Shown here: piece after piece, positions 16,664 through 38,978 of the stretch
Layout of the letters: every line of letters starts with the position of its first letter
Position numbering within the stretch: position 1 is the first letter of the stretch
Assembly: GCA_028873295.1 (NCBI GenBank)
Contig: JAGWKO010000001.1
Coordinates: 19,409-83,408, forward strand
Source of the DNA: Verrucomicrobiota bacterium
Lineage (GTDB): Bacteria > Chlamydiota > Chlamydiia > Chlamydiales > SM23-39
DNA: 64,000 nt
Direction of reading: 5' to 3'
Notes under the pieces: generated by a model
What the model was told of the DNA's origin: nothing
The model's database searches: none
Seen by the model: only the letters and a program-made list of their open reading frames with translations
Position numbers and translations under genes: made by a program

Positions 16664-17827
16664 ATGCTATTTATGGTAGCATATTACACAGAGCGAGAAA
16701 TAGCGCCTCCGGAAGGGAGTTATTTTCTTTTAGGCCCCAGAGGCACGGGTAAATCGACCTGGCTAAAAGCGCATTATCCTCATGCTGTGCGAATCGATCT
16801 TCTTTTAGGAGAAGAAGAACGGCGTTTTCGGGCTTATCCAGAAAAGATCAGAGACATTGCAAGAGGAATGCAGGTAGGTCAAACACTGATTCTGGATGAG
16901 ATTCAAAGGGCCCCCAATCTACTTCCAGAAATCCATGCGCTTATCGAAGAGAAGGTGGGACTGCAGTTCATTATGACTGGAAGCAGCGCAAGAAAACTGC
17001 GCAATACAGTAAGCGATCTTTTAGGAGGAAGAGCACTCCTCCGTCAAATGGGGCCATTTTTAGCCTCAGAATTAAAAGAGAAATTTTCCCTTGAAAAGGC
17101 TTTAAAAACAGGGTTAATTCCTCTTGTTTGGGAAGCAAACAATCCAATACAGCGATTAAATGACTACATCTCACTCTATTTAAGAGAAGAGGTTCAGACA
17201 GAGGGATTGGTGCGTCAAATAGGTGATTTTGCCCGGTTTTTGGAAATTGCCAGCTTTTCCTATGCATCGATTTGGACAACCGTCGATATTGCCCGAGAAT
17301 CCGCGGTCAAACGAGCTACTGTGGATAATTACCACCATATTTTGGAAGATTTGCTCCTCTCTTTTTCCCTTCCTGTTTTCACGCGAAGAGCAAAGAGGCG
17401 TTTGATCGCTCATTCCAAATTTTATTTTTTTGACGTAGGAGTCTTCAGAGCGCTTCGCCCGCGAGGGATCCTCGACATTGAGAGTGAAATTGAGGGAAGC
17501 GCTTTGGAGGGACTTGTTGCCCAGCATTTAAGAACCTGGGTTCAATTACAAAACGAAAAACACTCCCTCTCTTTTTGGCATACTGCGACAAGACTTGAGG
17601 TAGATTTTGTTATCTATGGTCCTCGCGGATTTTGGGCTATTGAAGTCAAAAGATCGGATAATCTGTCTCCTGATGACATCAGAGGACTTGCTGCGTTCCA
17701 GGAGGAATACCCGGAAGCCAAGTGCCTGATCGTAAACTTGGGGAAAAGAAGGGAAAATTATCGCGGATTTTCCGTTATTCCTGTGGAAGAGTTCCTTCTT
17801 GGCATTTCTCCAGGGAATCTTCTTTAG
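16664..17827 (+). CDS. AAA-type ATPase with DUF4143-like C-terminal domain
   Basis: Walker A GPRGTGKST and Walker B LILDEIQ. The start could be ATG 16673. Confidence 0.7.
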   Translation: MLFMVAYYTEREIAPPEGSYFLLGPRGTGKSTWLKAHYPHAVRIDLLLGEEERRFRAYPEKIRDIARGMQVGQTLILDEIQRAPNLLPEIHALIEEKVGLQFIMTGSSARKLRNTVSDLLGGRALLRQMGPFLASELKEKFSLEKALKTGLIPLVWEANNPIQRLNDYISLYLREEVQTEGLVRQIGDFARFLEIASFSYASIWTTVDIARESAVKRATVDNYHHILEDLLLSFSLPVFTRRAKRRLIAHSKFYFFDVGVFRALRPRGILDIESEIEGSALEGLVAQHLRTWVQLQNEKHSLSFWHTATRLEVDFVIYGPRGFWAIEVKRSDNLSPDDIRGLAAFQEEYPEAKCLIVNLGKRRENYRGFSVIPVEEFLLGISPGNLL

Positions 17828-22176: not shown

Positions 22177-22229
22177 ATAGACCCAAAATAGCTGAAGAAA
22201 TGCCAATTCTTCGGCTATTTTGGGTATAA
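22176..22229. repeat. Short palindromic element, mini copy of the 8196..8364 termini
   Basis: TATAGACCCAAAATAGCTGAAGAA-ATGCCAA-TTCTTCGGCTATTTTGGGTATA. Positions 22200..22228 match 8334..8362 with 3 mismatches. The element supplies the last codons (LYPK) and the stop of the upstream gene. Confidence 0.6.
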
Positions 22230-25462: not shown

Positions 25463-26644
25463 ATGAAATTCGTCTCGTGGATCTGCACTTTTTTTTCCGC
25501 ACTTCTGCTCTTTGCAGATCAGCCTTCCAGTTTTGAGCGAACAGCCAAAGAGACTGTTTTACCACAAACGATCCATGTTCTTCTTGAAAAAGAGGTTGAC
25601 GAAGCCCTTCTCGAGGTAAGAGGGCCCTATTACCTCTTCGATCCGCAGAATGGTTCGCGAATCACCGCTGGCCTTCTTGACAAGCGCTTTATGATTCGCG
25701 AGCTCGCCTCTGGGCTCAAGTGGGGAGAAAAATTTTCCGGCATCCATCAATTCTACGTAAAGCCGAGATCCCCCGACACCTCCATTTTCATCAATGGGAT
25801 TCAGTACTCTGGCTCTGTCTATTTTTATGGAGTTGGTGGAAAACTGCATATTGTCAATGAGATCGATATTGAGTCCTATGTGAAAGCAGTTTTGACAACG
25901 CAATTTCCCACTCCGATGGAACCGGAAGTGATGGCAGCGGTTGCCATTGCTGCTCGTACCTCTGCTTACTACAAAGCGTTAAAAGGGCGAGGCAGCTTTT
26001 GGCATGTCGATGCAAAAGAAGAAGGGTATATGGGAAGCGCTCTGATTGTCGCCCGTTCTCCGATTGAAAGAGCTGTTGACTCCACAAAGCAGCTTATCCT
26101 TCTCTACTCTCACGAAGAGAGAAACAGTCCTTTCCTTGCCTCCTGGACAGAACATAGCGCCGGGAAAACGGCCGCTTACGAAGCGATCTTTCGCAGATCG
26201 GAAGATGGACCTCAAGGCGTGGAAGCGCCACATGCCAAACTTGCGCGGCAAGAATCGAAGTGGAGCTATCAAATTTCCAAAAAAGCATTCTGCTCCCTCT
26301 TTCATCTCTCCTCTTTAAACGCTCTGGAACTGTTCTGCGACGCTTCTTCCGGCAAGGTTTATGCTCTACGCTGCAACAAGGGAGGGAATGAAAGCTCTGA
26401 TATCGAATTTGTCTCTCTACAGCGCATTCTTGGGAAAGAACATCTTCTCAGCTCAGACTTCACGGTAACACTTAAAGACGATCAACTCCTTTTTGCCGGT
26501 TATGGCAAGGGACATGGAGTGGGGCTCTGCCTCTATTCAGCCTCTGCTCTTGTGCAAAACGGAGAGAACGCGGTTAAAATCCTCAACAAGTTTTTCCCGG
26601 AGACATATCTGTGCAATGTCGGTACATTGCCGAGCGTACGGTAG
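25463..26644 (+). CDS. spoIID: SpoIID/LytB-domain protein
   Basis: Signal peptide. The central region (YVKAVLTTQFPTPMEPEVMAAVAIAARTSAYY) and GHGVGLC near the C-terminus are typical of SpoIID. Confidence 0.75.
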   Translation: MKFVSWICTFFSALLLFADQPSSFERTAKETVLPQTIHVLLEKEVDEALLEVRGPYYLFDPQNGSRITAGLLDKRFMIRELASGLKWGEKFSGIHQFYVKPRSPDTSIFINGIQYSGSVYFYGVGGKLHIVNEIDIESYVKAVLTTQFPTPMEPEVMAAVAIAARTSAYYKALKGRGSFWHVDAKEEGYMGSALIVARSPIERAVDSTKQLILLYSHEERNSPFLASWTEHSAGKTAAYEAIFRRSEDGPQGVEAPHAKLARQESKWSYQISKKAFCSLFHLSSLNALELFCDASSGKVYALRCNKGGNESSDIEFVSLQRILGKEHLLSSDFTVTLKDDQLLFAGYGKGHGVGLCLYSASALVQNGENAVKILNKFFPETYLCNVGTLPSVR

Positions 26645-27942
26645 GATTTTTTTTTCTCCTCCCTCTCCTCTGCTCATCTCTTTCTCTATTTGGGGAAGAT
26701 CCCTTGTCTCTAATAATCATGGGTTATGGGGGTAGGGCCCAATGGTTGCTTTTGGAATGTTTAAAGCAGAAAGGAGAAATTTCAGTCATCGCAATCTGTG
26801 ACGATCGAGCAGAAGAATGTCTCGATTACATGCAGAATGAATCGCATCTTCTTAATCCTGAATTAAAATCAAAGTATGACGCAGCTGTGCAGCAGGTTGC
26901 TCTTTATTCGGATTCTCCAGAAGACATTCGCAAAATGTTGCAAAACCATCAAGAAACAGATCTGATTTGGATTACCTCAAGAAATGACCGTCATTTCTTG
27001 CATCTCACTGAAGTTTTACAGTACTCTTCCTGTCAAAGGATTTTCATGGAAAAACCCCTCTTTCGAACACTCGATGAATTCGAGCGTTTTGATTGGGGAC
27101 TTGTTAAAGAGAGAGAGGTGGTCATTGGACTGACCCTTCGCTACTCGACAATGGCAACAATCGTAGCAGAATGGCTACAAGAACATTCTCATCTACTTGG
27201 GAAACTACAGAATGTGCAAGCTTGGGAGCATCTTGCCTTCTCACACGCACTTCATTCTTTTGTCTTGGGAACTCGTTGCCATCGTAGTATGTGGGGGGGG
27301 CTTTTGCTTGAAAAATCAATCCACGATCTTGATTTAGCGCTTTTGTGTGTTTCTAAATGTGGGTTCTCCCCATCAAAAATCGATATTGAAACAACCGCTG
27401 CGAATCGTTTTTTCACCAACTCAAATCGAGAGGAAATTCTCCAGTATTGCGACGATTCATTAAGTATTATTGTAGATCAACATCTAGCAAACTATCCATT
27501 GGATGACAACTTTTTTATGAGCGATTTCATTCCTGATTATCATCGCTGTTCCGCGCGCCTTTTTTCTGAAGAGAGTGATCCTATCGATGTAGAAGTAGAA
27601 ACTGATATGAGCTCCTACCGCGAACAAATGGAACGTGCAGTTCTTCTTTCTTTTGAAAAAGGTCAACTTTTAGTCGATATCATGGCAAGCTGCATGACTG
27701 TTACTTATGAAGATGGCACATGCTCAAACATCGATCTTCACACCAATTATGGGGGACATGCGGACGGAGATCGTTACGTGATCAAGACGATTTTAAAAGA
27801 AAAAATGTCGAGCGATCATTTTTATGTCACAATTACGGACAAAATTGTGAAACTTGCTAATTTCATCGCTCTAGTTTCAGAAAAGCAAGCGGTTGAAAAT
27901 ACACCAAAAAAACATGAAAAGTTTGACTTTAGAGGTAATTAG
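26611..27942 (+). CDS. Gfo/Idh/MocA-like oxidoreductase (3' end replaced by MITE insertion)
   Basis: Rossmann N-terminus (IIMGYGGRAQ..AICDD..DLIWITSRNDRHF..MEKPL). The present stop codon TAG 27940..27942 lies inside the element TIR. Confidence 0.6.
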   Translation: MQCRYIAERTVGFFFLLPLLCSSLSLFGEDPLSLIIMGYGGRAQWLLLECLKQKGEISVIAICDDRAEECLDYMQNESHLLNPELKSKYDAAVQQVALYSDSPEDIRKMLQNHQETDLIWITSRNDRHFLHLTEVLQYSSCQRIFMEKPLFRTLDEFERFDWGLVKEREVVIGLTLRYSTMATIVAEWLQEHSHLLGKLQNVQAWEHLAFSHALHSFVLGTRCHRSMWGGLLLEKSIHDLDLALLCVSKCGFSPSKIDIETTAANRFFTNSNREEILQYCDDSLSIIVDQHLANYPLDDNFFMSDFIPDYHRCSARLFSEESDPIDVEVETDMSSYREQMERAVLLSFEKGQLLVDIMASCMTVTYEDGTCSNIDLHTNYGGHADGDRYVIKTILKEKMSSDHFYVTITDKIVKLANFIALVSEKQAVENTPKKHEKFDFRGN

Positions 27943-28301
27943 TCACGGGGTGCGGGAAGAGGGCAACCACTAAGTTGCTTTTACTCACTGCCGCCCTCGG
28001 TCTTGGTCGCTGCGCTCCCGCGCCTCGGTTGCCACCCTCCATTTGGAGCTACCGCTCCAAATGTAGGGCTATGTAGTCAACGATTCCTGTAGAGACAAAG
28101 CATCTTTATGTTGGAGTTATACAAAAGATTTTGCTACCATTCCTACTACTATGAAGCCGACCTACGAGCAACTTGAACAGATTGTCCTCAATCAACAAAA
28201 GACGATCCTCGACCAGCAAAAAATGATCGTTGAGCTGAGGAAAACCATTCAGACACTGCAAGAAAAGGTGGCGACTCTCGAAGCACCCCGTGACTAATTA
28301 C
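27935..28301 (+). mobile_element. 367-bp MITE / internally deleted IS (IS66-family-like) with 19-bp perfect TIRs and 8-bp TSD
   Basis: TIR GTAATTAGTCACGGGGTGC at 27935..27953, with its reverse complement at 28283..28301. Direct repeat CTTTAGAG at 27927..27934 and 28302..28309. A residual 48-codon coiled-coil ORF lies at 28151..28297. Confidence 0.8.
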
Positions 28302-28343
28302 CTTTAGAGCGTATGAAAGCGCCGAAATTTGCAGGTTGGGCTC

Positions 28344-29135
28344 ATGAAAATATTCAATATCTCCCCTTTTTGGGGGACAAGCATATTTTGTTCCTTTGGA
28401 TATCTATTTGGCGAAATGCTACCTCCAGCCTCGATACCAGAGACATTGTTCGATGCCTATACTCTGCACGAGCAAATACCTGTGGAGCAACACTACTTAA
28501 ATGACACATGTATCAGTCCCATTAAGTATACAAAAAATGAAGTTGATTTTTTTTTGGGAAAAGCTGCGCGTAGAGAGGCCAATTATTACGGGATCACTGA
28601 TCTTTGGTTCTACGACGCTCTCGAAGATTTCTCCGAACATTTCCTAAATCAAGAAGTTGCAATTATTGGTTCTACTGTTCCATGGTATGAGAGTATTGTT
28701 TTACATTTTGGAGGAAAACCATTTACAATAGACTACAATCCGATTACCGTAGAAGACTCCAGACTTTCTGCAATAACTGTAGCAGAATATCAGCGGAATC
28801 CAAGGCAATTCGATGTTGTAGTCTCGATTTCAAGTTATGAGCATGATGGTCTAGGAAGATATGGAGATCTTCTTGATCCTAACGGAGACCTAAAAGCGAT
28901 GGAAGAATGCAAACGCATGCTTAAACCGAATGGCATTCTCATACTTGCTGTTCCTGTTGGCCCAGACCTTTTGGTCTGGAATGCTCATCGCATTTATGGC
29001 AAATTACGTCTACCGATGCTTCTCAATGGTTGGCGTATAATAAAGAGTTATGGTTTTGACCCTCTGGATTTTTTGGAATACCAAGTCGATCATCACCAGC
29101 CAATCTTCGTCCTGACAAAGAACCTATCCCAGTAA
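28344..29135 (+). CDS. DUF268-like putative SAM-dependent methyltransferase
   Basis: VAIIGSTVPWYE..FDVVVSISSYEHDGLGRYGD..LKPNGILILAVPVG..HRIYG matches my memory of the DUF268 family, which is mostly nematode. ATG 28344 is preferred over TTG 28329. Confidence 0.55.
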   Translation: MKIFNISPFWGTSIFCSFGYLFGEMLPPASIPETLFDAYTLHEQIPVEQHYLNDTCISPIKYTKNEVDFFLGKAARREANYYGITDLWFYDALEDFSEHFLNQEVAIIGSTVPWYESIVLHFGGKPFTIDYNPITVEDSRLSAITVAEYQRNPRQFDVVVSISSYEHDGLGRYGDLLDPNGDLKAMEECKRMLKPNGILILAVPVGPDLLVWNAHRIYGKLRLPMLLNGWRIIKSYGFDPLDFLEYQVDHHQPIFVLTKNLSQ

Positions 29136-29152
29136 TGGGGCAATGACCCGCC

Positions 29153-29854
29153 CTAATAACCTGGTACATCATATCCGTACCGTCGAGCCATTATGCCGAT
29201 CTTGTTGAAAAGATCCAATGGAATATTCTGCTGCAACATTTCCCACGTAATGGTCAAAGCTTTACCAGAACTGCCCAAATGTTTAGGAATGCCACACATA
29301 GAAATACGATCGCAATGAAGATTTAAACGCGCTTCAAATTCATCAATTACATCACTGTCTGTCAAATTTTCTACTTTATATGTCCACTCGGAAAAACTTT
29401 CAATCTTCTTATTCCAGTAATACCAATACTTAGCACTTTTTATTAATGGATCATCGTTTTGGTTTATTTCTGGCACTTGCTGGTAGATAAATGACAATGA
29501 AGGACTAGCCGGAAGCTCATTCATCAGGGCTAAAACAGAGGCTATAACAGAAAGAGGATGTCGCACTTGGTGGAATGTGTGATGAAATTTTGCTCCCTCC
29601 ATTTCCTCTCCTTGTTCATTATAAAAACCAGTTGCAAAAGGCCAACCTACGTAACCATCTGATTCAATGCATCCAAGCCCAACAGAAAGTCCAGCACTTA
29701 GTAAACAGTAATAAGCATATCGAGTGCCACCGTGCACACAGCCAATAACCTGAATATTGTATTCGGGTTGCACATCAAAAGGCTTTGTATTACTACAATA
29801 TGGAGCAACAAAAATTGTAATGAATGTCAATATTCTAAATCTAAAATAGATCAT
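29153..29854 (-). CDS. Hypothetical signal-anchored protein, possibly sulfotransferase-like
   Basis: N-terminal hydrophobic anchor. GCVHGGTRY is a possible 5'-PSB-like loop and VRHPLSVIAS fits the RxPxxxxxS 3'-PB-like motif. The assignment is weak. Confidence 0.35.
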   Translation of the reverse strand: MIYFRFRILTFITIFVAPYCSNTKPFDVQPEYNIQVIGCVHGGTRYAYYCLLSAGLSVGLGCIESDGYVGWPFATGFYNEQGEEMEGAKFHHTFHQVRHPLSVIASVLALMNELPASPSLSFIYQQVPEINQNDDPLIKSAKYWYYWNKKIESFSEWTYKVENLTDSDVIDEFEARLNLHCDRISMCGIPKHLGSSGKALTITWEMLQQNIPLDLFNKIGIMARRYGYDVPGY

Positions 29855-30087
29855 CGATCGGCTAGGCGACAAAAAGTTGCGAATAGTTGCGTTTTATCTT
29901 TTTAAAAGTAGTCTGAGCGACCTCTTCCCCTGTATCTTTAACTGCCGCGCATTTCTTACCATGTTTGACAGGACGAAGAATCACGGACTTTCCTTTTTTC
30001 TTCACAAGAACGGTACCACAAATAGTTATTTTTTGAGTAACCTATATAGATCGGTTAGGCGACGAAAGGGTCGCGAATCCCTACTCT

Positions 30088-31356
30088 CTAGATTTTTAAC
30101 CCGTGTTCTAAATAAGAATTGAGAGTAATAATTTTTCCCTCAATTTTTTGTTCCTTCATTCCTGCATGAAGGGCTCTTTGTTCACGTTCCATCGTGGCAT
30201 GATCATCTGCATTCCAGACAACTTGAAAGAATTTTTTTTGTCCTCGAGTTGACTGCACTATAAAATCGATTTCGTAACGCTCTTCAGTTAAATAATAACT
30301 GACTTTACATTCCAGACGCCTCAACTCTAAATAAACAATGTTTTCGAATAAACGGTCACGATCATTCTCATAATCAAGTGTAACTGCTCTTGCAATTCCA
30401 GAGTCAATCGAATAGTTTTTTTTTGGATTCGTTTGCACTTTTCGAATGGACAAATCGTAAAGAGGAACTAAAAAAGCTAAATAAGCATCTTCAATATGAT
30501 CAGCATAATCATAAAGAACATCCTTAGTAACCGAATAGCCACGACTTTTCAAATCATTATAAAATTTATTAATTGAAAATGGTCTTCCCACATTGTGCAA
30601 CATAGAAAGAATCATCTCTTTGATGATTCCAGTGGTTTTAATTCCATGGCGTTCAATAATATCTCGATAAATAGCTATATCGATATATTCCTGCAAAATC
30701 TTTTGCTTGAAATCAGGATTATCTATTGCAACAATCTCAGGGAAACCGCCGCTTGTTAAATAGTCAAGAAACAAGTGAGTTAGTTTATCCTCTGTTTTTT
30801 TGTCATATAATTCATGATTTAGACAAATCTTTTTGGCTCGAAGATATTCTTGAAAGCTATATGGCCAAATTTCAGTTGCAAGAGCCCTCCCTCGTAAACT
30901 GGTTGCGATTTCTTTGCTCAACAATTTAGCCGATGAACCGGTTAAATAAATTTCGACATCCTTGCTATCCTGTAACCGACGCACAACAAGAGGCCAATGA
31001 TCAACATTTTGTATTTCATCTAAAAACAAGTAACATCTTCTATCATAATTTTCAGGATAAAGAGAAAAGAAGGCATCGATTAATAAAGCCATTTTTTTTT
31101 GATCTGTTGGCAAGAGACGATCGTCTTCAAAATTGATGTATAAAATAGAAGATTTAGGAATGCCCTCTCGTATTAATTTGAAAATGTGTTGATAAACAAA
31201 ATAAGTTTTTCCAGAGCGCCGCATCCCCATAGCCACCTTGATTTTTCCTGAAACATCGGAAAACTCGGCATCTCGAACTGTAAAATCTTTAATTCTGTCT
31301 AACTTGTCCCAGAATTCACCAAGGAGTTTTTTGAGAATAGCGCTCTCTTCCATCAT
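30088..31356 (-). CDS. AAA-type ATPase with DUF4143-like domain (second copy)
   Basis: Walker A GMRRSGKT and Walker B LFLDEIQ. Hand counts of 60-nt lines give about 33-37 percent GC, against 47-57 percent in tmk/gyrA. Confidence 0.7.
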   Translation of the reverse strand: MMEESAILKKLLGEFWDKLDRIKDFTVRDAEFSDVSGKIKVAMGMRRSGKTYFVYQHIFKLIREGIPKSSILYINFEDDRLLPTDQKKMALLIDAFFSLYPENYDRRCYLFLDEIQNVDHWPLVVRRLQDSKDVEIYLTGSSAKLLSKEIATSLRGRALATEIWPYSFQEYLRAKKICLNHELYDKKTEDKLTHLFLDYLTSGGFPEIVAIDNPDFKQKILQEYIDIAIYRDIIERHGIKTTGIIKEMILSMLHNVGRPFSINKFYNDLKSRGYSVTKDVLYDYADHIEDAYLAFLVPLYDLSIRKVQTNPKKNYSIDSGIARAVTLDYENDRDRLFENIVYLELRRLECKVSYYLTEERYEIDFIVQSTRGQKKFFQVVWNADDHATMEREQRALHAGMKEQKIEGKIITLNSYLEHGLKI

Positions 31357-31428
31357 TTCTTTCCTCTCTTTAAGGACAGGATATCATAAATCTATCCTTT
31401 TTTTGAGGAAAGATTTATAAGTCATTAA

Positions 31429-32067
31429 CTACAAGGTCTTTGAGCTGTTGCAAAACTTCCCCCCTATCACCTCCATCGCCCTCTCACAGAGCTCCTCCTC
31501 ACTCACCGAAGCATCAAGAGAATGTATTCTCTCCGGATTCTCGCGGCAAAGAAGCAAGTACCCCTCTCGAATCTTATAGTGAAACGCCATCTCCTCTGCT
31601 TCGATGCGATCGCGCATCTGTCTTCCTGCCATGCGCTTTTTCCCCAGCTCAGGATCAATGTCGAGATAAAGAGTGAGATCGGGCTCTAAAGCCCCTGCGA
31701 AAAAAGTGCAAAGAAAAGCAACTTCCTTTATGCCAAGGCTCCTTGCAAATCCTTGATAGACAATTGTGGAGTCATTGAAGCGATCAGAAAGAACCCATCT
31801 GCCCTCCGCCAAAGCGGGGCGAATACGGCTCTCCACCTGCTGCGCACGGGAAGCAAGAAAGAGAGCGAGTTCTGCCCGGGGCCCAAGAGTTTGCTGGGAG
31901 TGCAAAAGCAGCTTGCGAACCTCCTCGCCAAGAGGAGTCCCCCCAGGCTCTCGTGTTAAAAGGGGGGAGATGCCGCGAGCAGAAAGCGACTCTGTCAACC
32001 GTGCAATGAGAGTGCTCTTTCCTGCCCCCTCCCCGCCTTCGATTGTGATGAAGACTCCACGCTTCAC
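31429..32067 (-). CDS. tmk: Thymidylate kinase
   Basis: FITIEGGEGAGKST and DRF motifs, 212 aa. Overlaps the gyrA stop by 4 nt. Confidence 0.9.
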   Translation of the reverse strand: MKRGVFITIEGGEGAGKSTLIARLTESLSARGISPLLTREPGGTPLGEEVRKLLLHSQQTLGPRAELALFLASRAQQVESRIRPALAEGRWVLSDRFNDSTIVYQGFARSLGIKEVAFLCTFFAGALEPDLTLYLDIDPELGKKRMAGRQMRDRIEAEEMAFHYKIREGYLLLCRENPERIHSLDASVSEEELCERAMEVIGGKFCNSSKTL

Positions 32068-38948: not shown

Positions 38949-38978
38949 TTGACAATTAAATTGAATGGATGCTATAAT
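38949..38978 (+). promoter_or_regulatory. Putative promoter TTGACA-18 nt-TATAAT for second F-box gene
   Basis: Perfect hexamers. The spacer shares ATTAAATTG with the 11091..11119 promoter. The -10 element lies inside the longest ORF, which favours ATG 38992 as the start. Confidence 0.5.

Follow-up and report, generated by a model that had tools for sequence, protein, structure and literature searches.

The window analyzed here is a 64,000-nucleotide stretch of a metagenome-assembled genome from an environmental chlamydia. Within it, an AT-rich islet separates two conserved gene blocks (Table 1). The islet carries four genes, which encode an oxidoreductase, a DUF268 protein, a protein with sulfotransferase-like motifs (hereafter, the third protein) and an ATPase. 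All four open reading frames (ORFs) were found where the first-pass annotation had placed them. A miniature inverted-repeat element (MITE) lies between the first two.

Table 1. Features of the islet and its flanks (window coordinates)
Feature	Coordinates	Strand	Description
spoIID	25463..26644	+	Left flank; closes the conserved dcd-ruvB-spoIID block
Islet segment	26645-31428		4.8 kb, AT-rich; spoIID on the left, tmk-gyrA-gyrB on the right; four genes
Gfo/Idh/MocA-family oxidoreductase	26611..27942	+	443 aa at present; N-terminal signal-like segment; Pfam PF01408
Target-site duplication, left copy	27927..27934	.	8 bp, CTTTAGAG; identical to 28302-28309
MITE-like element	27935..28301	.	367 bp; perfect 19-nt terminal inverted repeats (GTAATTAGTCACGGGGTGC); without transposase
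Target-site duplication, right copy	28302..28309	.	8 bp, CTTTAGAG
DUF268 protein	28344..29135	+	263 aa; class I SAM-methyltransferase-like fold; weak N-terminal signal-like segment
Signal-bearing protein, unnamed sulfotransferase-fold family (third protein)	29153..29872	-	239 aa from TTG; 233 aa from ATG at 29854
AAA_14 + DUF4143 ATPase, PDC-S01	30088..31356	-	422 aa; Pfam and PADLOC
tmk	31429..32067	-	Right flank; end of the conserved gyrB-gyrA-tmk block

The GC content of the islet was 39.4%, as opposed to 47.9% in the rest of the window. Among 4,784-bp stretches of the 64 kb, the GC minimum was found at a start position of 26651. Stretches of this length outside the islet averaged 47.6%, with a standard deviation of 1.8% and a minimum of 43.4%, which places the islet about 4.5 standard deviations below them. 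Its four genes had the lowest GC and GC3 among the 45 genes of the window encoding at least 150 aa, with GC3 values 2.5 to 4 standard deviations under those of the remaining genes; the four lowest-GC genes would be adjacent by chance with a probability of about 3e-4. The GC trough, previously sketched from hand counts, is therefore real. The counts within the islet were exact on recounting (28.3% at 29401, 36.7% at 30121 and 33.3% at 30601), whereas the 47% quoted for tmk becomes 53.7% over the whole gene. The oxidoreductase and DUF268 genes were identical in composition (GC/GC3 of 0.409/0.365 and 0.409/0.364, respectively), while the third gene (GC of 0.386) and the ATPase gene (0.348, the lowest in the window, with a GC3 of 0.291) differed, which suggests separate origins.

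We examined the flanks of the islet in related chlamydial genomes. For the left flank, 10 kb downstream of spoIID was inspected in 51 loci encoding a SpoIID relative. Upstream of spoIID, ruvB and mostly dcd too were present wherever the contig reached. Downstream, islet genes, tmk or gyrA were found within 10 kb in none of the 51 loci, and 10 relatives have in common another conserved gene pair. For the right flank, gyrA-tmk was found in seven chlamydial metagenome loci, five of which also contained gyrB. None of these seven carried an islet gene, and the five tmk loci with a downstream flank had none there; three of the seven had a conserved same-strand gene after tmk that is missing from the window. 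Relatives therefore have other conserved neighbors at both flanks. Composition and absence from relatives support the horizontal acquisition proposed in the first-pass annotation, although the nearest relative is distant (SpoIID 68% identical) and gain is therefore not fully separable from loss in relatives or local rearrangement.

In its atypical composition, absence from relatives and variable site, the segment resembles classical genomic islands. It differs from them in lacking an integrase, a tRNA and flanking direct repeats, and neither att-like sites nor other mobility genes mark an insertion there. A pair of ~30-bp direct repeats reported earlier was not found in the islet; the sole good 30-nt pair of the window lies at 8334 and 22199. 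The segment is a fairly ordinary accessory islet with some puzzling details.

The oxidoreductase was correctly assigned to the Gfo/Idh/MocA family (GFO_IDH_MocA, 29.2 bits in Pfam against a cutoff of 24). Its subfamily is small and divergent, with 44 homologs in a word-indexed search; the members are long (440-475 aa), and few match the C-terminal Pfam domain. Across 13 homologs, two motifs were invariant: GxGG, of the Rossmann fold, and EKP. The latter, a catalytic-type motif, is intact in the window protein. The ORF is full length relative to homologs, with a C-terminal tail that varies across the family. Gfo/Idh/MocA enzymes include sugar-nucleotide 3-dehydrogenases (WbpB/WlbA-type) and the exported glucose-fructose oxidoreductase (GFOR) of Zymomonas. 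The window protein resembles the former in its N-terminal Rossmann domain, in both motifs and through a homolog encoded beside DegT aminotransferase and acetyltransferase genes, and the latter in its predicted N-terminal export signal, but it differs from both in its length and its small, divergent subfamily.

The last codons and the stop of the oxidoreductase gene fall within the MITE. This element, already recognized in the first-pass annotation, proved genuine: it is like known MITEs in its terminal inverted repeats, target-site duplication and absence of a transposase. It differs from them in its copy number, which is one in the sequences available: it occurs once in the window and is absent from 95 related loci. 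Its GC content was host-like (0.488 versus 0.386 for the remainder of the islet), and on folding it formed a long hairpin (z = -6.1). Without the MITE and one copy of the duplication, the oxidoreductase ORF is 453 aa long, and its TGA overlaps the ATG of the DUF268 gene (ATGA). The MITE split this formerly overlapping gene pair and left the oxidoreductase with 2 codons in place of its final 16.

The DUF268 protein matched PF03269 with an E-value of 1.6e-33 (116 bits against a cutoff of 25) and, marginally, Methyltransf_11/12. The Pfam profile upholds the methyltransferase-fold assignment, with a class I methyltransferase-like core. The protein is full length relative to homologs, retains the invariant catalytic-type motif HDGLGRYGD and has a match of 100% identity at NCBI, named "DUF268 domain-containing protein." PF03269 was first defined on Caenorhabditis proteins, and the domain had been associated mainly with nematodes; a eukaryote-associated source had been raised as a possibility. 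However, the family is abundant in bacteria. We found 1,526 homologs, the best 120 of which were 46-60% identical to the window protein; source names among these 120 were Chlamydiia, Chlamydiae, Gammaproteobacteria, Thermodesulfobacteriota and Verrucomicrobiota, and the homolog contigs inspected had bacterial gene contexts. Since the nearest homologs examined or named are bacterial, a eukaryotic donor appears unsupported by sequence comparison, and the islet most likely came from other bacteria. The nematode proteins, 9 of 11 of which have a signal peptide, belong to the secretory pathway (PMC3534327), and the function of DUF268 is still listed as unknown (PMC7614267). Like the window protein, they combine an N-terminal secretory signal with the company of glycosylation genes (PMC3534327; PMC7614267); Caenorhabditis elegans members are 310-380 aa long, as opposed to ~250-265 aa in bacteria.

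The third protein contains the motifs GCVHGGT and RHPLSVIAS, but its assignment as a sulfotransferase failed every sequence-profile search: there was no match in Pfam or NCBIfam and no profile match to any sulfotransferase model or structure. What the assignment draws on is fold and motif resemblance. AlphaFold2 models had pLDDT values of 83.7 and 90.6, and sulfotransferases were the top fold matches in both PDB and BFVD. The similarity was weak, with TM values of 0.31-0.47 in PDB and best E-values of 2.8e-4 and 3.5e-3. The third protein thus appears to resemble sulfotransferases weakly, in predicted fold and in a 3'-phosphate-binding-type motif. We compared its family with PAPS-dependent sulfotransferases (the bacterial RSGTT / RDPxD-type families, CurM ST, StaL and SULTs). 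A strand-loop-helix with GC(G/A)RSGT resembles their 5'-phosphosulfate-binding loop, and a strand followed by R-x-P-x5-S resembles their 3'-phosphate-binding motif. The family, which consists of 4,375 representative clusters, differs from them in the low TM values and in a His-Glu dyad and a WYYWN motif of its own. The window ORF is full length. Residues R47, S48, H66 and E67, each shared by 49-61 of 64 members of the family, are H, G, L and G in the window copy, which leaves it without the loop Arg/Ser and without the dyad. Part of the module may therefore be decaying or re-purposed.

The AAA/DUF4143 assignment of the ATPase was borne out by Pfam (AAA_14, E of 2.7e-35; DUF4143, E of 2.3e-16). 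Residues 36-415 also matched the PADLOC model PDLC04787 (PDC-S01) with an E-value of 3.4e-103. PDC-S01, a candidate single-gene anti-phage system, is described as joining an ATPase to a PD-(D/E)xK-superfamily domain and as very common in prokaryotes; its defense activity itself is without experimental validation (PMC12988326). The window ATPase, full length relative to homologs, resembles PDC-S01 in its full-length match and in its architecture, AAA_14 + DUF4143, and both Walker motifs are intact (GMRRSGKT for A, LFLDE for B). It differs in its host, an obligate intracellular-type lineage. As a candidate defense gene, it falls outside any tailoring module and outside the gene set in which it had been placed; its GC content, the lowest of the four genes, and a second, diverged copy at 16664-17827 also argue against membership. 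We regard it as an independent candidate defense gene of the ATPase-nuclease type, unrelated to the enzymes.

The three enzymes share a link to bacterial glycan synthesis. Oxidoreductase homologs were found among GT11, GT6, GT2, NodZ, GT92, DegT, acetyltransferase and ABC-2 transporter genes, and the closest DUF268 homologs among GT10, GT11, GT2, GT47 and Methyltransf_21 genes. In other family members, the third-protein domain forms fusions with GT2, GT92 and WbsX/GT4 proteins, and a "capsular polysaccharide synthesis protein" of Megaviridae contains it as well (E of 6.2e-10, TM of 0.67). Two third-protein paralogs lie ~4 kb or less from a DUF268 gene in one locus (L007), and the closest named-context homolog abuts a TylF O-methyltransferase fragment in another (L092). 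The exact set of three was seen nowhere else, and the two oxidoreductase contexts inspected (L062 and L063) were without DUF268 and the third protein. The contigs bearing homologs had a GC content of 35-42%, which fits a lower-GC donor. Of the glycan or small-molecule tailoring module proposed earlier, the link to glycan tailoring is supported for the three enzymes; it does not extend to the ATPase.

We consider it probable that the islet is a composite, acquired horizontally from lower-GC bacteria, of three enzymes of glycan-tailoring type and an independent defense candidate. It lies at a synteny breakpoint, where it would have arrived, probably by two or more separate steps. The genes for the oxidoreductase and DUF268 would be a pair once translationally coupled, followed by the convergent gene for the sulfotransferase-fold protein. 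The three enzymes have putative Sec-type N-terminal signals, and elsewhere their families occur within bacterial glycan-synthesis machinery or as fusions to it. They may tailor a glycan that is secreted or displayed at the surface, through oxidation of sugars, O-methylation and possibly sulfation. Once the islet was in place, a resident MITE inserted near the end of the oxidoreductase gene (3' side), which uncoupled the pair, and the sulfotransferase-like copy is now without four residues that rank among the most conserved in its family. A point against this explanation is that the bacterial periplasm is a difficult setting for exported enzymes dependent on SAM, PAPS or NAD(P).

The predicted signals also bear on an alternative that we consider unlikely, namely, that the three enzymes are secreted effectors. 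They would act where SAM and PAPS exist (host cytosol, secretory pathway or vacuole lumen), on glycans of the host or the interface, instead of making a glycan for the bacterium itself in its cytoplasm. All three, not two as thought before, have N-terminal signal-like segments. Such segments are a family trait, present in 98 of 117 DUF268 homologs (ending just ahead of a conserved PPRxIP), 37 of 42 oxidoreductase homologs and 7 of 9 close homologs of the third protein. Most of its more distant relatives are without one (55 of 143 have it), so that export is predicted to be a derived feature of the subfamily. An F-box protein is also encoded by this organism, a chlamydia, and the secretory-pathway location of nematode DUF268 proteins fits this alternative as well. 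However, the segments were scored by a simple hydrophobicity rule with a threshold of 1.9, which the N terminus of the window's own DUF268 protein, at 1.63, does not reach, and DUF268 homologs occur in Gammaproteobacteria and Thermodesulfobacteriota, which are not necessarily intracellular.

It is likewise improbable that the islet is a decaying remnant whose ORFs are intact but whose working module is gone. The MITE insertion, which ended the coupling, and the four substitutions in the third protein would fit such decay, but all four ORFs are full length, the EKP and HDGLGRYGD motifs are intact, and the altered oxidoreductase tail is variable in the family regardless. Least credible, and in our view very improbable, is an islet without horizontal transfer, its low-GC genes ancestral to the lineage or its contig misassembled: the absence of mobility genes and att sites and the metagenomic source of the assembly would allow it, but the islet genes are low in GC3 and missing from relatives at both flanks, core chlamydial genes lie on both sides of the islet on one contig, and a MITE of host GC, with its target duplication, sits inside it.

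The gap between spoIID and tmk is filled by four open reading frames (ORFs), which form a low-GC patch referred to here as the islet (26645-31428). The window belongs to a chlamydial genome assembled from a metagenome, and the islet products are 100% identical to NCBI 'Verrucomicrobiota bacterium' entries with KGI80_ locus tags on a contig of 89,309 bp. In both GC and GC3, each of the four genes lies below all 41 other window genes of at least 150 aa, which average 0.484 (SD 0.027) and 0.491 (SD 0.050), respectively. The chance of the four lowest of 45 genes being adjacent is roughly 42/148,995, about 3e-4. Over its whole length, the islet has a GC content of 39.4%, compared with 47.9% for the remaining window and 47.3% for the window overall. 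The GC minimum at this length is the stretch starting at 26651, and stretches of equal length elsewhere never fall below 43.4%. The hand counts from which the first-pass annotation had drawn a GC trough match ours to the digit. Contigs that carry homologues have a GC content of 35-42%.

Features of the islet and its flanking genes, in window coordinates
Feature	Position	Strand	GC	GC3	Remark
spoIID	25463-26644				left flank
Gfo/Idh/MocA oxidoreductase	26611-27942	+	0.409	0.365	
MITE	27935-28301				367 bp; 19/19-nt terminal inverted repeats; 8-bp duplication CTTTAGAG
DUF268 protein	28344-29135	+	0.409	0.364	
Sulfotransferase-fold third protein	29153-29872	-	0.386	0.321	
AAA_14/DUF4143 ATPase	30088-31356	-	0.348	0.291	
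tmk	31429-32067				right flank

A search with SpoIID returned 51 relatives, the named ones nearly all Chlamydiae or Chlamydiales and the closest 68% identical. Wherever the contig reaches that far, spoIID is preceded in them by ruvB and mostly by dcd, and neither tmk, gyrA nor any islet gene occurs within 10 kb downstream of it. Ten of these relatives have in common a conserved downstream pair that is different and that the window does not have; the closest relatives each differ. On the other flank, gyrA-tmk was found in seven chlamydial metagenome loci, five of which also contain gyrB. No islet gene follows tmk in the five gyrA-tmk loci with downstream sequence, and in three loci the gene after tmk is a conserved one on the same strand, with no counterpart in the window. 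Since both flanks differ from those of relatives, the islet sits exactly where both ancestral neighbourhoods break.

With its atypical composition, and with its genes absent from relatives on both flanks, the islet resembles genomic islands, and the proposal of horizontal transfer holds. Hallmarks of an integrative island were not found: there is no tRNA gene in the 64 kb, no recombinase among the ORFs and no flanking repeat better than chance, and the junctions contain no att-like repeat, integrase, tRNA, structured RNA or Rfam element. In scans for promoters and terminators, the number of sites did not exceed that in shuffled sequence. Islets of this kind are already known and routine.

The best-supported reading is that the islet was acquired horizontally and is a composite of two components. 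The first would be a small set of the glycan-tailoring type, bacterial in origin, comprising the oxidoreductase-DUF268 pair and a degenerate-looking sulfotransferase-fold gene; the second would be a PDC-S01 defence candidate unrelated to this set. At a later step, the islet would have been altered by a resident MITE. So read, the islet would show that, at sites prone to rearrangement, environmental chlamydiae exchange small cassettes for glycan tailoring and defence.

The MITE, already noted in the first pass, is real. Its terminal inverted repeats are perfect, and with a target-site duplication, a small size and no transposase it has the marks of its class. Its GC content of 0.488 is host-like, unlike that of the islet, and its only ORF, which matched no family, encodes a coiled-coil-like peptide of 48 aa. 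The element occurs once in the window; no further copy was found in 95 loci or in plasmids, and no parent insertion sequence was found. Without the MITE and one copy of the duplication, the oxidoreductase ORF runs to 453 aa, and its TGA overlaps the ATG with which the DUF268 gene starts (ATGA). Together with the identical composition of the two genes, this restored overlap marks them as a translationally coupled pair that arrived together and was later split by a resident element. The 8-bp duplication, the ends starting with GTAA and the leucine-zipper-like ORF had led us to suspect an IS66-type origin of the MITE, an assumption that was dropped for want of a Pfam, NCBIfam or plasmid DNA match. 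The 27 nt to its left (27908-27934, including CTTTAGAG) are 85% identical to 8568-8594, ending CTTTGGAG; this likeness may reflect a preferred target sequence or chance.

The oxidoreductase matched the N-terminal NAD(P)-binding domain GFO_IDH_MocA (PF01408) with a score of 29.2 bits (cut-off 24). A glycine-rich loop and an EKP motif are the defining marks of this family; in 13 homologues, neither the dinucleotide loop (G38, G40, G41) nor E147-K148-P149 varies. The C-terminal alpha/beta domain (PF02894 or PF22725) gave no match at E <= 1 in the window protein, and a precomputed PF02894 match exists for only 4 of 44 homologues. These 44 matches make up a small subfamily. One homologue lies among GT11, GT6, GT2, epimerase, DegT, acetyltransferase and ABC-2/ABC transporter genes, and another among NodZ, GT11, GT92, dTDP-sugar isomerase and GT2 genes. 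Neither of these two contexts contains a DUF268 or third-protein gene, and so far the exact trio of oxidoreductase, DUF268 protein and third protein has turned up nowhere but in the window. For the enzyme set, the earlier glycan-tailoring idea stands, given the homologues in sugar clusters and the fusion of the third-protein domain to glycosyltransferases.

The DUF268 assignment was borne out by Pfam (PF03269, 116.4 bits against a gathering threshold of 25, E 1.6e-33, profile positions 5-145 of 176), while Methyltransf_11 and Methyltransf_12 matched only marginally (E 0.003-0.04). Its core residues (GS...E, SISS.EHDGLGRYGD and WN..R.YG) are present, and an alignment of 14 sequences including the window protein has 52 invariant columns. 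DUF268 has no characterised member (PMC7614267). The 11 members in C. elegans, of 310-380 aa and with signal peptides in 9, are found in 'glycoclusters' and have no known function (PMC3534327, PMC7614267). A literature search for a characterised DUF268 protein or glycan methyltransferase returned nothing relevant.

The first-pass annotation had linked the DUF268 gene to nematodes and considered a eukaryote-associated source for the islet. We found 1,526 homologues, the best 120 of which share 46-60% identity; those named among the best 120 are from Chlamydiia, Chlamydiae, Gammaproteobacteria, Thermodesulfobacteriota and Verrucomicrobiota. The two closest (60% and 56%) lie beside thrS, among GT10, GT11, GT2, GT47-like and Methyltransf_21 genes, and a Chlamydiia homologue is a singleton with type III secretion genes on one side and ychF on the other. 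Given these bacterial names and plainly bacterial contexts, a eukaryotic donor is not supported and the immediate donor of the gene was most likely bacterial. DUF268 has long been viewed as a nematode family. Its bacterial members are abundant, occur in fucosyltransferase-rich clusters and nearly always bear a signal, which makes them worth following up and offers a tractable route to the function of the family.

Also worth following up is the uncurated sulfotransferase-fold family of the third protein. This protein had no match in Pfam or NCBIfam and only 10 homologues in a word-indexed search. An exhaustive HMMER search with the alignment of these 10 returned 4,375 representative clusters (clustered at 50% identity) at E <= 0.001, and a stricter limit of E <= 1e-10 left 2,349. 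The third protein therefore belongs to a large uncurated family. The domain was unmatched by Pfam in all ten members searched and is fused to glycosyltransferases in four of the ten: twice to GT2, once to GT92 and once in a 1,920-aa protein with GT4/GT1, WbsX and GT2.

AlphaFold2 models of the third protein had a pLDDT of 83.7 when built from 10 sequences and of 90.6 when built from 64. The top PDB fold matches were nearly all sulfotransferases (CurM ST, SULT2A1, SULT4A1, StaL, NDST, TPST), at weak scores (best E-values 2.8e-4 and 3.5e-3, TM 0.31-0.47). Among viral models (BFVD), the top match was a domain of A0A5J6VJR2, a Megaviridae 'capsular polysaccharide synthesis protein' of 1,202 aa (E 6.2e-10, TM 0.67, 22% identity), followed by several 'sulfotransferase family' proteins. 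This match suggests that the unnamed family is common to bacteria and giant viruses. PDB sequence-profile searches with the 10- and 64-sequence alignments returned no sulfotransferase.

The family consensus consists of a first strand, GC(G/A)RSGT and a helix, and of a strand at 95-103, HQVR-x-P-x5-S and a helix (106-119 in the model). The motifs GC(G/A)RSGT and R-x-P-x5-S are similar to those with which PAPS-dependent sulfotransferases bind the 5'-phosphosulfate and the 3'-phosphate, respectively. The window copy has the 3'-phosphate-type Arg...Ser (+8), with R104 shared by 63 of 64 family members and S/T112 by 60, and it retains H101. It lacks a 5'-phosphosulfate-type loop with a basic residue and Ser/Thr, reading GCVHGGT: R47 (R/K in 52 of 64) is replaced by H and S48 (S in 57) by G. 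A His-Glu dyad, a candidate for the catalytic base, is likewise changed, with H66 (60 of 64) replaced by L and E67 (61 of 64) by G. Four of the positions best conserved in the family are altered in the window copy, which may be inactive or changed in function. Of the earlier claim of a sulfotransferase-like protein, a weak fold resemblance and the 3'-phosphate-type motif stand; a sequence-profile match is missing and the loop Arg and Ser are gone. Judged from the model and the motifs, the third protein probably has a sulfotransferase fold that binds a nucleotide-sulfate or related donor, and the odds that the family has genuine sulfotransferase activity are roughly even. Nothing relevant was found in the literature on chlamydial sulfotransferases.

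A partial counterpart of the trio is found on another bacterial contig (L007, 8001-9557 and 12676-13470). It carries two tandem third-protein paralogues that are 43% mutually identical; a DUF268 gene lies about 3 kb beyond the second, near rsmB, and both paralogues are within about 4 kb of it. On two others (L093 and L094), the homologue adjoins rsmB. Among the further contexts of the third protein, one holds a fragment of a TylF O-methyltransferase and another holds deoxysugar genes together with GT2; two have no obvious sugar genes. Annotated as a 'hypothetical protein', the third protein is a testable annotation target, from a family that is unnamed in curated libraries, repeatedly fused to glycosyltransferases and equipped with sulfotransferase-type motifs.

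All three enzyme families have Sec-signal-like N-termini, with basic residues, 12-15 hydrophobic residues and then small residues. By a simple hydrophobicity rule, rather than a dedicated predictor, such a segment occurs in 98 of 117 DUF268 homologues, 37 of 42 oxidoreductase homologues and 7 of 9 close third-protein homologues, but in only 55 of 143 members of the broader family. NCBI gene calls for the three enzymes (412, 239 and 225 aa) are shorter and start downstream of these segments. Because family alignments favour the longer starts and the segments are conserved in homologues, the deposited annotations probably cut off the N-termini.

How exported enzymes of the SAM or PAPS type would be supplied with cofactor is a puzzle, and the expected need of the three for SAM, PAPS or NAD(P) is the ground for a rival, effector-like explanation. 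In a more far-reaching reading, environmental chlamydiae and other bacteria would export a cofactor-dependent glycan-tailoring set that is used outside the cytoplasm on host SAM and PAPS, the unnamed domain would be a glycan sulfotransferase family shared with giant viruses, and nematode DUF268 genes would have a history of inter-domain transfer in common with these bacterial genes. We consider this reading improbable. If it were true, DUF268 methyltransferases and sulfotransferase-fold and Gfo/Idh/MocA enzymes would act in the periplasm, in the lumen of the vacuole or in the secretory pathway of the host, and the unnamed domain of about 200 aa would be a widespread, previously unrecognised family of glycan sulfotransferases.

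Under the preferred reading of a composite islet, the ATPase is separate from the enzymes, and its proposed membership in their module fails. Pfam identified AAA_14 (E 2.7e-35, residues 37-172) and DUF4143 (E 2.3e-16, 231-377), with Walker A and B intact. The PADLOC PDC-S01 model PDLC04787 matched residues 36-415 at E 3.4e-103, covering profile positions 26-389 of 412. PDC-S01, an ATPase fused to a PD-(D/E)xK-superfamily domain, is among the commonest prokaryotic defence candidates, most of which await validation (PMC12988326). This full-length match, with which the distinctly lower GC agrees, points to an independent, often transferred element outside the enzyme module, with a candidate defence role. 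A second AAA_14 and DUF4143 gene (16664-17827, +; Pfam E 2.4e-18 and 3.8e-27) has diverged from its islet counterpart, with which it shares only 24% identity. It lies in another local GC dip (GC 0.445, GC3 0.392), with a 28-nt near-palindrome at 16629-16685. It is probably another PDC-S01-type insertion.

A pair of direct repeats of about 30 bp, reported earlier from the islet, is absent there; just one good pair of 30 nt occurs in the window, at 8334 and 22199. The segments 8196-8364 and 22178-22228 have a common 30-nt sequence, AATGCCAATTCTTGGACTATTTTGGGTATA, 93% identical and within an inverted repeat at both sites. These sites represent a small palindromic repeat element, which was probably the source of the reported pair.

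Elsewhere in the window, an F-box protein is encoded at 38965-40104 (+; Pfam F-box-like, 30.7 bits; low GC, 0.432). The F-box is a eukaryote-like domain typical of amoeba-associated chlamydiae. A single 1,330-aa ORF at 42903-46895 (+) combines starch-synthase GT5/GT1, CBM48 and alpha-amylase (branching-enzyme-like) domains and has the look of a fusion between a glycogen synthase and a branching enzyme. Three tandem paralogous ORFs (14-394, 543-1274 and 1290-1976) have a 229-nt repeat in common (75-96% identical), with an unusually low GC3 (0.37-0.39) and high GC1 and GC2.
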